A stretch of DNA of 61,908 nt, counting the filler, from Deltaproteobacteria bacterium (lineage in GTDB: Bacteria; JAUYMQ01), in the NCBI GenBank assembly GCA_030698575.1. It is 11 parts of 11 records of this genome, joined end to end, with 100 filler letters (N's around TTAATTAATTAA, not from the genome) between each part and the next. Parts side by side here need not be neighbours in the genome. Positions count along the whole stretch, not along the records: positions 12,481 to 16,240 come from JAUYMQ010000537.1; 10 more parts are not named here. One strand, given 5' to 3'. The notes below the pieces were generated by a model. It worked only from the letters and a program-made list of their open reading frames with translations. It ran no database searches and was not told where the DNA came from. The position numbers were made by a program, and so were the translations under genes. Of the stretch, positions 12,381 to 16,240 are shown piece after piece (within the stretch, counting starts at the first letter, position 1; each line of letters starts with the position of its first letter).

Positions 12381-12480
12381 NNNNNNNNNNNNNNNNNNNN
12401 NNNNNNNNNNNNNNNNNNNNNNNNTTAATTAATTAANNNNNNNNNNNNNNNNNNNNNNNNNNNNNNNNNNNNNNNNNNNN

Positions 12481-13262
12481 GTCGTGCCGTTGGAAACATT
12501 CATGGCGCCGCCGGCGGTAATGGCGCCACCGGAAATACTGAAACTCGAATTGTCAGAATTCCGCTGGCCGACGATGATCTGGTTGCTGATCGTGGCGGTG
12601 CCGTTCGTCTGATTATAGGCCGCCTTGGCCCCATAGTTGCCGATGATAAGATGTGCTTGGTTAACCGATAGTTCCGAGGTGGCGCCATCCATATTGACGT
12701 AGCCTTGAACCCCGTTACTGCTCCCGGTCCGCTCGGCAAGTGTGAGATTGCCGTCTAGAAGGATTAATTTGCCGCCATTGGTGATATTGACCGTGCCGGT
12801 TCGATTGACGTTGTTTCCATAGCCGACCACCACGAGCCGGTTCGCTGTGACCGTCGCATTGTCGATGTTGAGCGTGCCGTTTGGCGCGGTGCCGTTGGCG
12901 GCGCCGACCCACATCGCCGCGTTCCCGACGCCGGACGCCCCGGCGGTAAGCGTGAGTTGGGCGCCGTTGTTGATCGTGACCGTACCCGTTCCATTCAGTG
13001 TCGACAGCGTCGCCTGGTTGTGACCAACACGGAGCTTTCCGAAGTCGGCGGTCCCGTCAAACGTTGCCGTCCCGCCGGCGCCAAAATTAATGACGTCGCC
13101 GGGCAGCGGAGACGAGAGCGCAGCCGTGCCGTCCGTGTTGGTGTAGTTGGCGTCGGTCAGGATGCGCGTTCCGCCCTGCCAGAAAAGGTCTGCCGCCTGA
13201 AGCTGAGAGGTGGCCGACAACACTAGAGCCGCGGCCCAAAGCAATGATGTACGTCGATTCAT
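12481..13262 (-). CDS. Secreted Gly/Asn/Thr-rich beta-repeat surface protein (3'-truncated)
   Basis: Signal peptide MNRRTSLLWAAALVLSATSQLQA; repeated GTVTI/GTLNI/GTVNI strands. Confidence 0.75.
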
Positions 13263-13453
13263 ATCTCTTTACTCCCGTTTACAAACAATGGTGATTCTTC
13301 AACCCGCTTTGCGTTTCGACAGCCAACACGGCTTATAATCGCGATTACAACCAGTAGTTCCACGAGCGTAAAACCGTGTAGGGGCCTGGAGAAGTTGGTA
13401 CGCTTCTCCGTAGTTGTTTTTACCTTTTGGCCCCGTACACGGAGAGTTTTTCC

Positions 13454-14539
13454 ATGTCGAGCGCGTTTCAATCGTTTGTGGGAGTTGACTTGCACAAGTG
13501 CACCGTGACGCTGACCGCCGTCGATGCGGCGGGAGAGATCACCCGGCTTAAGATCAGCACGAAGAGCACGGGCAAGATCGAGGCTTGGCTGCAGGCGCTT
13601 CCTGGCCCGGTGCACTTGGCCGTGGAAGCCTGCCCGTTCGTGGAATGGTTCATCGATCGTTTTCGCGACTGCGTCGCGCGGATCGACATCGCCGACGCCA
13701 CGGAACTGGCAAGCCGTCGCGGTAAGCGGCGCAAGACCGACTGGAACGATTCGCTGGACATCGCCGCGCGACTGGCGCGCGGCGAGTGCCCGCTGGGATT
13801 CATCGCCGACGAGGAGCTGATGCAGCTCCGTAAGCGGGGCCGGCACTGGCGTCACTTGAGTCGATTGTTGTCCCGCAGCAAGCATGCCATGAAGAGCATG
13901 CTCAACGCGGCCAACATTCGCGGCCCCAAGTTCGACGGCGCCGCGGCCCAGCGCTGGCTGCTCGCGAACCGGGACCTCTTGAAGCCGGTCCAGCAACAGG
14001 CCTTCGCCGACTTCATCGACGTCGTCATGCTCACCGAGCGTCATCGAGAGCGGCTGCGGCGCGAGATCAACTTCGCCACGCGGAGCGAGCGGTTCACGCC
14101 GATCATCTCGCTGCTGGTGAGCGTGCCCGGCATTGGAGAGATCTGGGCGGCGATCATCGCCGCCGAGATCGGACCCTTCGATCGCTTTCCCAACGCCGAC
14201 ACCCTCGAGTTCTGGGCGGGCCTTACCGCCGACATGAAGGAGTCGGCCGGACGCACTCAAAGCGGCAACATCACCAAGGCCGGTTCGGTCACGTTGCGGT
14301 GGGCCTTGTGCCAGGCGGCCGTCACGCTCTGCCAGTGCGATGCCCGACAGGAAGCGATTCGCCAGCGACTGGTAAAGAGGCTTGGTAAACCCAAGGCCAA
14401 CGTCGCCATGGGCCGCCGGCTGCTGCGCGTGTTGTACGCCATGATGCGAGACGGAAAAACCTTCGAGCGAGGACCGGCCAGAGACCGGACCGCGGCCGCT
14501 AACCGGGTACGCCTCGGAAGAAAGAAGCAAGTGGCTTAA
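13454..14539 (+). CDS. IS110 family transposase/recombinase
   Basis: FVGVDLHK, AVEAC, KTDWNDS (DEDD domain); SVPGIG...AEIG..RF...WAGL..ESAG...ITKAGSVTLRWAL (Tnp_20 domain); GGAGAG RBS. Confidence 0.96.
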   Translation: MSSAFQSFVGVDLHKCTVTLTAVDAAGEITRLKISTKSTGKIEAWLQALPGPVHLAVEACPFVEWFIDRFRDCVARIDIADATELASRRGKRRKTDWNDSLDIAARLARGECPLGFIADEELMQLRKRGRHWRHLSRLLSRSKHAMKSMLNAANIRGPKFDGAAAQRWLLANRDLLKPVQQQAFADFIDVVMLTERHRERLRREINFATRSERFTPIISLLVSVPGIGEIWAAIIAAEIGPFDRFPNADTLEFWAGLTADMKESAGRTQSGNITKAGSVTLRWALCQAAVTLCQCDARQEAIRQRLVKRLGKPKANVAMGRRLLRVLYAMMRDGKTFERGPARDRTAAANRVRLGRKKQVA

Positions 14540-14599
14540 CCCCGGAGACAAAGAATCATTGACGCAGTGCGGAATCTTTGTGGCGTCTCGCTGCGGCGA

Positions 14600-14830
14600 C
14601 GGCGCCCCAGCGGATTGGTGACCGCGACCGGCCTTCATTCGGCCCAAGCGGCTCTCGTTCTCTCCCAGAGAAAAGAGCATCCCTTGGTGACCGCGACAGC
14701 GTGAATTCGGCCCGACCGCTGCGAACATGGTTTTATTCAGCCCGGTGAACACGTGTCGGCATGATGACCGCCACGTCCGGTGACTGCGTAGAGATGAATT
14801 CAACCGCCGCGCCGCTTCGCCCAAGCGACG
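14600..14830 (+). ncRNA. Putative bridge/seek-type guide RNA of the IS (boundaries approximate)
   Basis: Repeated scaffold TTGGTGACCGCGAC...TTCGGCCC frames target-matching segments; two further segments match the donor junction. Confidence 0.75.
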
Positions 14831-15249
14831 CAGGACGGACAACGCGATTCCGCCAACACAACTCAGGGCAACCGTCATCCTGCGGAGAGACCACAATGCC
14901 GGAACCATGAGGGAAAGAAAATTGTTCAGCAGCCGTTGACCTACGGCCCCTACAGAGATGAACCCGCCCTGCGAGCGACTACGAAAAGAGGCGAACATTT
15001 TCACGAACCTCCGCCTGGCTCTACCGCTGGCTTTTTAGCTGTTAAAGCACTTGAACAGATACTAGCTGAATTTGTCAGTTAATGCCAGTGGGGAGCCGGA
15101 AAAACGCGGCAAGGCACGACACATGCCAATTATAAGGCGCCGCGTAAAAAACAGGCAAACACCTGTTGGCCCATCAGGCCAATGTCATTCTGAGCAAAAC
15201 GACGAATCCGGCTTGCCCCAGTATAGATCCTTCGGTCGCTTAGGCTGCT

Positions 15250-16240
15250 TCAGGATGATTGAGACCCGTGATTACGATTCGTAGCTACGGCCAAGGTGCC
15301 GAGCAGTGCCGAAATCAACAGCACCACACCAGCCGGTTCGGGCACGGCTGCGCCGGCTACGCTGCCGCTTCCGAAAGCGTTACCGAACCGAGCCCGCCAC
15401 GCCGTGTAATCGGCTTCATTCACTGTGCCTGGTGTATCGACTTCATTCGAAAGCGGGCCGCCTTTGCGCCAGAGGACGTAATCCGCCGCGTCCACGACGC
15501 CATTGCCATTGTAGTCGCCTGGGACGCCAGTTACTTCGTCGAACCGTATCGAATCGACGTTGATCACCAGGTCGTTCGTGTGAGCGAACAGATTGACGCC
15601 GAATTGCTGCACGTTGAGACGGTTCGTTACAGCCGACAATGGAAAGACGAGATCGTAATACAATCCATCAATCGGTAGATTTATCTCGCCATCCAATCCA
15701 ACGCCACCTCCGGACGTCGTCTGAAACGCAGCTTCGGGCGTGTTGTACTCTCCGGTCTGGAACCAAGCTTGTACCCCGAGAGACCCGACGGCATTAAGCG
15801 CGTCAGTGGCCGACATGCGGAAGGTAACTTTGCCGTAGTTGGAAAAGTCACTCAGCCGGTTGTTAAACGTATTGCCATCCCAAGGCTGTCCATTGCCCCA
15901 ACTGATGGCGGCCCCACTGGGGCTGGCTTCAGTACCGGCACCGCCTTTGTCGGTCCATTGAAGCGAACCGACACTGCCAACGGTAACTTGCGACAATCCC
16001 GTTTGGTTTTGGCCGCCGTCGTTGCCAACAATCGCAGCTTGCTCGAAGTTCGCGACGGCCCCGTTTAGACCGTTTTCCGGCGAGCCAGCGTCGTGTGACG
16101 CCAGAAGGCGCGAGGGCATGGAGGGTCCAATTTTACGAACATCGAGAATATTCCATGTCAAGTTGCCTAAAGCCGCGTGATCGCGAACACTCAGTCCAAC
16201 AGTCCGGATGTAGGCTTGTTGCGCTGGCGTAAGAAGATTT
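15250..16240 (-). CDS. PEP-CTERM sorting domain protein (5'-truncated)
   Basis: C-terminal VPEPAGVVLLISALLG; dockerin-like PGDYNGNGVVDAADYVLWRK typical of Pirellulales-type planctomycetes. Confidence 0.88.

Follow-up and report, generated by a model that had tools for sequence, protein, structure and literature searches.

Introduction

Mobile DNA that enters a gene can be made harmless in several ways. Inteins are in-frame, stop-free inserts that are translated together with the host protein, excise themselves and ligate their flanks, whereas Rickettsia palindromic elements and similar repeats, which are non-autonomous and about 100–150 nucleotides (nt) long, lie in frame within genes and are kept in the mature protein. 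IStrons combine an insertion sequence (IS) with a group I intron (PMC4227781). Elements of the IS1111/IS110 type carry repeats just inside their ends and, in a non-coding region downstream of the transposase gene, the sequence for a guide RNA called a seekRNA or bridge RNA (PMC11187229). Here we describe an IS1111-type insertion sequence at positions 13373..14959 (+) of a 61,908-nt stretch of DNA, filler included, from an assembly labeled Deltaproteobacteria (GCA_030698575.1), which we refer to as the window. The element interrupts, in antisense orientation, a prepilin-type gene at its Gly-Phe|Thr-Leu-Val-Glu codons, which specify the class III cleavage site, and it leaves the reading frame of that gene open from end to end.

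Class III leader peptides have been described with lengths of 6–26 amino acids (aa); they are cytoplasmic and are cut after a Gly at the membrane's cytoplasmic face (PMC4471445). Since such leaders stay in the cytoplasm, a long cytoplasmic extension would not be topologically absurd.

Results

The host frame is open through the whole element

The element comprises 1587 nt between two Phe codons, or 1590 nt (530 codons) when the shared Phe codon is counted once. On the host strand, an open reading frame of 581 aa (13259..15004, −) runs through all of it, in agreement with the initial annotation, which had described a 1590-base pair element of 530 codons inside an open 581-aa host frame. In the phase of the host gene, we find no antisense stop in the left non-coding end, the transposase region or the right non-coding end, while the other two antisense phases contain 0, 18 and 2 and 1, 5 and 8 stops in these three parts, respectively. 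The three sense frames of the right end contain 5, 4 and 3 stops. The transposase gene and the antisense host frame are in codon register (phase 0), so that an antisense stop is possible only from a sense TTA, CTA or TCA codon.

Relatives of the element were collected at 36 loci from genomes and 80 from metagenomes, and 117 loci entered the comparison of end anchors; the metagenome loci are the best 80 of 404 matches, with decayed copies under-sampled. They form a planctomycete family of at least 72 distinct elements, the metagenomes coming from soil, freshwater, sediment and groundwater. The period is divisible by three in 79 of the 82 complete elements and in 40 of the 43 distinct lengths, which range from 657 to 1899 nt, and 78 of the 82 lack any host-phase stop, both non-coding ends included. 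Length modulo three and the absence of antisense stops were two of the checks that the initial annotation had proposed for homologues, and both came out as it had anticipated. In the relatives, 13–42 and 5–19 stops fall in the other two antisense phases when the entire element is counted (0–21 and 0–11 by region), and the sense frames of the right non-coding end carry 0–8. The right non-coding region itself varies from 339 to 714 nt; in the genome set it takes 11 values (399, 402, 420, 429, 438, 456, 480, 498, 639, 648 and 663 nt), all divisible by three.

The same constraint is visible in the changes that separate related copies. Eight independent, non-overlapping pairs differ by 2039 substitutions (595 non-coding and 1444 coding), none of which creates a stop, against about 54 expected (20.2 non-coding and 33.7 coding) under a uniform substitution spectrum; a GC-biased spectrum would lower this expectation a few-fold, although not to zero. 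All 11 insertions and deletions in the seven closer pairs are multiples of three. The eighth pair (L008/L017), whose substitutions were kept, is too diverged for insertions and deletions to be scored, with single gaps that are not multiples of three and a net length difference that is. The fact that no stop has arisen on independent branches means that shared ancestry does not explain the open frame. In 18 transposase genes, none of 6599 codons is TTA, CTA or TCA, as opposed to 53 of 5763 codons in 19 flanking host genes, and such codons occur 1–9 times in each of eight further IS110-family paralogues of the same genomes. Taken together, these sequence comparisons clearly point to selection for read-through of the host frame, and neither chance nor GC content is sufficient to account for it.

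Some copies depart from this pattern. L012 and L026 are broken, with the transposase frame broken as well, and L001 and L029 are decayed; exceptions represented by a single copy, here and in the Discussion, may be due to sequencing errors. L146, whose transposase is 68% identical, has a non-prepilin flank (RPLHAFTTTQK / NW/TSVGV), a length of 1801 nt that is not divisible by three and 16 host-phase stops, and it may be an off-target or retargeted copy. L036 (2405–3058) is a 657-nt deletion derivative in which both termini survive, along with 131 transposase codons and, of the right end, 216 nt; its length remains divisible by three and its host frame stop-free, ahead of a full 345-aa host gene. 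Separately, L046, L051, L058, L061 and L064 in one genome (G004) belong to another group of IS110-family paralogues with exceptionally long open frames, of 531–560 codons, around the transposase domain, and this group is unrelated to the prepilin-targeting family.

The element enters the codons of the class III cleavage site in one orientation

In the window, the left junction reads, in host sense, ...AGG CCC CTA CAC GGT TTT / ACG CTC GTG GAA..., and the right junction reads ...CAG GGC GGG TTC / ATC TCT GTA GGG GCC.... The left end of the element on the host strand thus codes for ...KVKTTTEKRTNFSRPLHG-F-TLVELLVVIAII, a basic tail followed by ...RPLHG-FTLVE, which matches the basic leader and rebuilt G|F that had been noted there before. 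This junction is a property of the family: the sequence ...RPLHG-F-TL[VI]E is found in 90 of the 94 left flanks long enough to read (FTLVE in 81 and FTLIE in 9), and with it the conserved terminal G-F that the initial annotation had asked for. Right flanks read GF in 54 of 84 cases and AF in 22, together 76. Insertion is antisense to the host gene in every case and entails no duplication beyond the shared bases, only the Phe codon being common to both sides.

Five genomes searched for natural target sites (G001–G005) hold 28–58 of them each; position −1 is Gly in 168 sites and Ala in 66. This mix matches that of the right junctions (54/22), and hence the residue at the right junction is the host's own. 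The Gly(−1) codon of the left junction, on the other hand, is an invariant GGT that the element brings. The Phe codon is TTC in 55 of 84 right junctions and TTT in 90 of 94 left junctions, and about four in five natural sites read TTT (counted by eye in the five genomes), a usage consistent with a crossover at the two T's and an element-borne C.

The ends assigned to the element agree with break points in other sequences. On the right side, copies in contigs of four other metagenomes depart from the window at 14959–14963; on the left, the match reaches as far as about 13338, inside the conserved host motif, and one unoccupied site departs from the window at 13375. No joint across an empty site was seen in the contigs of these four metagenomes.

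Two features of the target are worth recording in their own right. The Gly-Phe codons of prepilin sites in G001–G005 are mostly GGT TTT, contrary to the general GC bias of these GC-rich genomes, and Ala replaces Gly at −1 in about 28% of the sites. In addition, insertion regenerates its own target (GGT TTT / ACG CT), and several copies consequently lie directly behind the left end of another copy, reading ...RPLHGF/ISVGA... (right junctions of L080, L089, L130 and L144; left junction of L090 and L098). These stacked copies are head-to-tail arrays or remnants, and L007 lies behind a degenerate PPLHGL.

Host genes at other loci and in the window

Where we checked, the hosts are DUF1559 (SBP_bac_10) proteins or other N_methyl proteins. 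At L002, L008, L010 and L014, full DUF1559 genes (PF07596) follow the element. At L067 (6445–11270 in G002:C3, a genome labeled Phycisphaerales), two identical copies, separated by 2.2 kilobases, occupy neighboring pseudopilin genes (one is GspH-like) of an operon that is otherwise intact (T2SSE, T2SSF, PilM, PilN, PilO and further N_methyl genes); both fusions, of 728 and 880 aa, are open, and their stop/start overlap is ATGA. The target family is highly redundant, with tens of paralogues per genome (the five genomes searched; PMC8567305). We also asked whether an old insertion common to several loci could reveal if host genes survive. Similar hosts were seen at L016 and L024 only (84% over 109 aa), their elements differing at 78 of 1587 bases, and this line was dropped as the data are too few to separate shared from independent insertions.

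In the window the host gene is truncated, a point absent from the initial annotation. The only Pfam match in the 581-aa fusion is PF07963 (N_methyl) at residues 543–558. The fusion has the Gly(−1), Phe(+1) and Glu(+5) of a class III substrate in ...RPLHG-FTLVE, but its leader would be 544 aa long counted from the GTG, outside the range of 6–26 aa, and it lacks the approximately 21 hydrophobic residues and the mature domain. A cut at G|F would leave FTLVELLVVIAII (13 residues) followed by SRVGCRNAKR..., with a stop after 37 codons. What remains of the host gene is therefore a 37-codon stump, with 36 codons past Phe(+1) and 13 of about 21 hydrophobic residues. Owing to this truncation, no protein can mature at the window locus, and only the read-through itself, through coupling to the next gene, could matter there: the TGA of the stump (13261..13259) overlaps the ATG of the next gene (13262..13260). 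A GGAGG at 15012..15008 precedes the GTG start by 3 nt and an ATG at 14998 by 9 nt.

Frame and stops, rather than residues, seem to matter in the element-coded extension

Substitutions in the non-coding parts are spread evenly over the antisense codon positions (149/126/142, P=0.37). An AlphaFold2 model of the fusion, built with 17 fusions in the alignment, has a mean predicted local distance difference test score (pLDDT) of 36.8, with 527 of 581 residues under 50, and contains two helices only, one of which is the prepilin helix. Judging from this evenness, the model and the Pfam search, only the reading frame and the absence of stops seem to matter in the leader, and not its residue sequence. 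In each of the 72 distinct elements, the final 25 residues that the element encodes are basic, with a net charge of +4 to +10 that makes up most of the net charge of the whole element-coded extension (counts of charge and hydrophobicity exclude L003, L012, L026, L036, L146 and five exact duplicates). Read by eye and not counted, the last approximately 25 codons of the left end contain no conserved ATG, GTG or TTG for an internal restart. Public protein sets list 34 relatives of the fusion as called proteins, up to 1016 aa long, of which 16 contain N_methyl and 14 of these DUF1559 as well.

The element belongs to the IS1111 group

The window element falls within an established family, and the way it chooses its target is likewise of a known type. 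Its transposase combines an N-terminal DEDD (RuvC-like) domain (PF01548, 28.5 bits, E=1.5e-6, slightly below the cut-off of 29) with a C-terminal IS116/IS110/IS902 domain (PF02371, 73.6 bits against a cut-off of 21.3). Asp12, Glu58, Asp99 and Asp102 are invariant across the transposase alignment (A4), and we take them to be the DEDD residues. Subterminal inverted repeats are present and conserved in the end anchors of the 117 loci, although their offsets of 5 and 6 nt from the ends do not exactly match the 7/3-nt asymmetry described for the group (PMC11187229). The transposase 5′ leader contains a hairpin at 13384–13405, GGAGAAG...CTTCTCC in the window and GTGGAAG...CTTCCAC in L010, the pairing of which is kept through changes on both arms in the left ends of the window, L010, L029 and L032.

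Aligned relatives share a core of about 250 nt in the right non-coding region, and the consensus fold (A3) has 62 pairs, 24 of them with compensatory changes on both sides. A search of 13200–15100 against Rfam at E up to 1 matched no family and no ribozyme. Four short segments of the core, found by eye, match the target or the ends of the element in the surroundings of the shared bases and are guide-like in this respect (Table 1). The variable base of the AGCGTGAA segment follows the third base of the host Thr codon in L020 and L024 and departs from it in L002, L004, L008 and L014, where one mismatch thus seems to be tolerated. The −35-like TTGACC is invariant in the right end, and joining the ends would place it 17 nt from TAAAAC in the left end. 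From this spacing, and from the same property of the family as reported (PMC11187229), a complete transposase promoter probably arises only where the ends meet in the circle.

Table 1. Coordinates of the element, its parts and the interrupted host gene in the window
Feature	Position	Strand	Remarks
IS1111-type insertion sequence	13373..14959	+	End anchors conserved in 117 loci; metagenome contigs diverge at 14959-14963
Left end and transposase 5′ leader	13373..13453	+	Host strand codes for basic tail ...RVRGQKVKTTTEKRTNFSRPLHG
Subterminal inverted repeat GTAGGGGCC	13378-13386		5 nt inside left end
Transposase gene, 361 aa from ATG, without TTA/CTA/TCA codons	13454..14539	+	Pfam domains and codon counts
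Right non-coding region, 420 nt, 3′ of transposase gene	14540..14959	+	Conserved structured core 14605-14844 (alignment A1)
Guide-like segment GCCTTCAT	14631..14638	+	Matches host sense GSN TTC A, the other flank of the target; weakest of the four matches
Guide-like segment AGCGTGAA	14698..14705	+	Equals + strand of target left flank plus shared bases (host sense TTY ACG CT)
Guide-like segment GGTTTTA	14729..14735	+	Complementary to + strand across AAA and element left end ACC; GGTTTT invariant
Guide-like segment AGAGATGAA	14790..14798	+	Equals element right end plus GAA; nearly invariant columns
−35-like TTGACC	14936-14941	+	In right non-coding region
Inverted repeat GGCCCCTAC	14945-14953		6 nt inside right end
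Host-strand open frame: host leader, 530 element codons, host stump	13259..15004	−	
Host start and leader (V)KMFASFRSRSQGG plus Phe (14962..14960)	14960..15004	−	Read from sequence
Host stump: Phe (13372..13370), TLVELLVVIAII, 24 unrelated codons	13259..13372	−	

Two genes flank the host gene on the − strand, neither with a Pfam match. The 277-aa product of the gene at 12429–13262 contains repeats and, at its N terminus, a signal-like sequence, and the gene at 15250–16161 codes for a 303-aa protein with a tail that resembles PEP-CTERM by eye. The window contains 880 masked bases, part of them within the 12429–13262 gene.

Discussion

We propose that an RNA from the 3′ non-coding region would guide this IS1111-type element, in one orientation only, into the codons of the class III cleavage site (host sense G/A-F|T-L-V/I-E, about GGT TTT ACG CT), with the crossover falling inside the Phe codon. 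From the left end the host frame gains a Gly(−1) codon (GGT) together with a basic tail, and, with the transposase gene antisense and in codon register, ribosomes from the host start codon would read through the element into the host gene. The ban on stops is specific to one phase, and this phase is tied to the host frame at both entry and exit, for which read-through from the host start codon is the simplest reading. Read-through would keep the host protein and coupled genes expressed, while the 490–630 element-coded residues would form an oversized leader, retained in the cytoplasm, that prepilin peptidase could cut at the rebuilt G|F. We infer that the fusion is translated, inserted into the membrane and cleaved in this manner, and we rate the whole sequence of events, from guided insertion to the cut, as having slightly better than an even chance of being correct. 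That the family amounts to an autonomous RNA-guided element hidden in a leader that is discarded anyway, with an extension of 500–650 residues, a rebuilt G|F and removal by a host peptidase, we regard as a little short of an even bet. The initial annotation had put forward such protein-level removal and the maturation of the host protein after insertion. Its observations are confirmed, and its interpretation is supported in part, namely with regard to selection for read-through; removal of the leader at the protein level is a proposal. Maturation does not apply to the 37-codon stump of the window, but it could hold at L002, L008, L010 and L014, where the DUF1559 gene is complete.

Several observations weigh against this proposal. 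A leader of about 540 aa would be more than 20 times longer than the 6–26 aa described. In the host phase, 40 of 72 elements contain a hydrophobic 19-mer (Kyte-Doolittle 1.6 or more), often right behind the old G|F, and such membrane-like segments are not visibly avoided in comparison with the other two phases (50 of 72 and 14 of 72). The AlphaFold2 model places a helix at residues 18–48 of the fusion, and a hydrophobic segment of this kind might be the first to insert, thereby inverting the topology. As in the window, only a stump of the host gene is left in L023 and L026. Copies within one genome differ by 0–5 bases, which marks the insertions as recent, and intact host genes alone are thus no proof of tolerance. 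With tens of paralogues per genome, moreover, the loss of one would be cheap and selection for silence weak. The codons for ...PLHG are at the same time the inverted repeat and the terminal bases of the element, so their conservation alone does not prove selection on the cleavage site. Two copies break the rule itself: L003 has an intact transposase frame and yet a 400-nt right end with 3 stops, and in L032 the frame is broken by a 1-nt deletion in the left end, with only 173 transposase residues on the contig. Finally, the steps of leader removal are deduced from sequence features.

The main rival to cleavage of an oversized leader is that the open frame serves against polarity and nothing else, keeping ribosomes on the host transcript and sparing it premature termination, decay or the loss of translational coupling downstream, while the interrupted protein is not matured or is useless. 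This would exert the same selection on frame and stops, and it agrees with the overlap of the stump's TGA with the next ATG, with the ATGA overlap inside the L067 operon and with an element that is stop-free in the truncated host gene of the window; the unprecedented leader length and the hydrophobic segments, which speak against maturation, leave it untouched. It has no need, however, for an in-frame exit with Gly(−1) and a basic tail, which all 72 distinct elements possess. Re-initiation after a stop close to the left end would do equally well, yet we read no conserved start codon there, and downstream coupling was checked for a minority of the target genes examined. On balance, we judge anti-polarity alone to be rather unlikely. 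Selection on the frame could instead reflect an element-serving protein, such as a regulator of transposition, that borrows the host start. A long open frame conserved in 78 of 82 elements and the 34 relatives listed by gene callers would suit such a protein, but it would have no predicted fold, no family other than N_methyl, no codon-position pattern in its non-coding parts and no start codon of its own within the element; throughout the right end, insertions ranging from 3 to about 240 nt are tolerated, and the frame continues into the host protein. We find this improbable.

The element might also restrain itself, with read-through sustaining an antisense host transcription that silences the transposase and the guide RNA until excision. 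The invariably antisense orientation and a transposase promoter that is probably present only at the circle junction (TTGACC, 17 nt, TAAAAC) would be in keeping with this, but the selection invoked is of second order, and neither an exit in register with the host frame nor a rebuilt G|F would be needed; we consider it just as improbable as an element-serving protein. It might be argued, lastly, that a GC-rich gene in antisense register is often open in any case, the remainder being coincidence or shared ancestry. The initial annotation had raised the caveat of the register itself, and it is fair for a single gene: at host-gene codon usage, the chance that one 361-codon gene contains no TTA, CTA or TCA is about 0.04, and 2 of 19 host genes contain none. 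It does not explain non-coding ends that are open as well, and in the host phase only, or lengths divisible by three in 40 of 43 cases. Nor does it explain 0 stops from 2039 substitutions on independent branches where about 54 were expected, or the eight paralogue controls from the same genomes, all of which carry such codons. As far as sequence statistics allow, chance and composition are already refuted, and we assign them a negligible probability.

Insertion sequences are regarded as destroying the genes that receive them; in this family, at least 72 distinct elements have been selected to stay translatable on the host strand, and this selection extends through the region that codes for the putative guide RNA. 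If removal by prepilin peptidase is real, it would give selfish DNA a new way of doing no harm and would add a third option to the two by which insertions are made harmless, RNA splicing (IStrons, group I and II introns) and protein splicing (inteins). It would also set a new upper limit for class III leaders, with peptidases that accept leaders more than 20 times longer than any described. A single sequence would then serve as a transposase gene, a structured guide RNA and an antisense open frame, which would be of interest for the engineering of bridge-RNA or seekRNA recombinases. A more immediate consequence concerns the annotation of planctomycete genomes, in which element loci are mislabeled because gene callers list fusions of 800–1000 aa as proteins.

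With respect to known systems, a literature search (supplements aside) returned no IS110/IS1111 element in prepilin or DUF1559 genes and no in-frame leader-peptide insertion sequence, although the IS lists in the supplement of PMC11187229 could include a family member. The available text of that article contains neither "open reading frame" nor "in frame" and mentions no frame constraint. The element shares with the IS1111/IS110 elements described there the DEDD-type domains, subterminal repeats and a long downstream non-coding region with a structured RNA. Also in common are short candidate guide segments that match both target strands, insertion that is specific for site and orientation and makes no true duplication, and a promoter that probably spans the circle junction (PMC11187229). 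It differs in its target, which consists of cleavage-site codons instead of repetitive extragenic palindromic (REP) sequences, the ends of attC sites or a short linear target, and in a length divisible by three with a host frame that is stop-free over the whole element (PMC11187229).

Like the IStrons, it would be a transposon with a device that makes insertion into genes harmless, but IStrons self-splice from RNA, whereas this element would be translated and its product cut by a host peptidase (PMC4227781). Rfam and the Pfam search of the antisense product revealed neither a group I ribozyme nor an intein splicing domain. With inteins it would share an in-frame insert removed at the protein level; unlike them, it has no intein domain that we could find, the insert sits in a stretch destined for disposal by the host in any case, and the cutting would fall to a host enzyme. 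Rickettsia palindromic elements are likewise mobile DNA in frame within coding genes, but here the element is autonomous and 1.5–1.9 kilobases long, and its product would be removed. The rebuilt junction has the basic tail, Gly(−1), Phe(+1) and Glu(+5) of class III signal peptides, as in type IV pilins, pseudopilins and planctomycete proteins that combine N_methyl with DUF1559 (PMC4471445, PMC8567305), with the full hydrophobic helix present at other loci and not in the window. In contrast to the leaders of 6–26 aa described, the leader would here reach 500–650 aa. What is new in this family is that its members are constrained to stay in frame and stop-free while they are carried at the cleavage site of a leader peptide.

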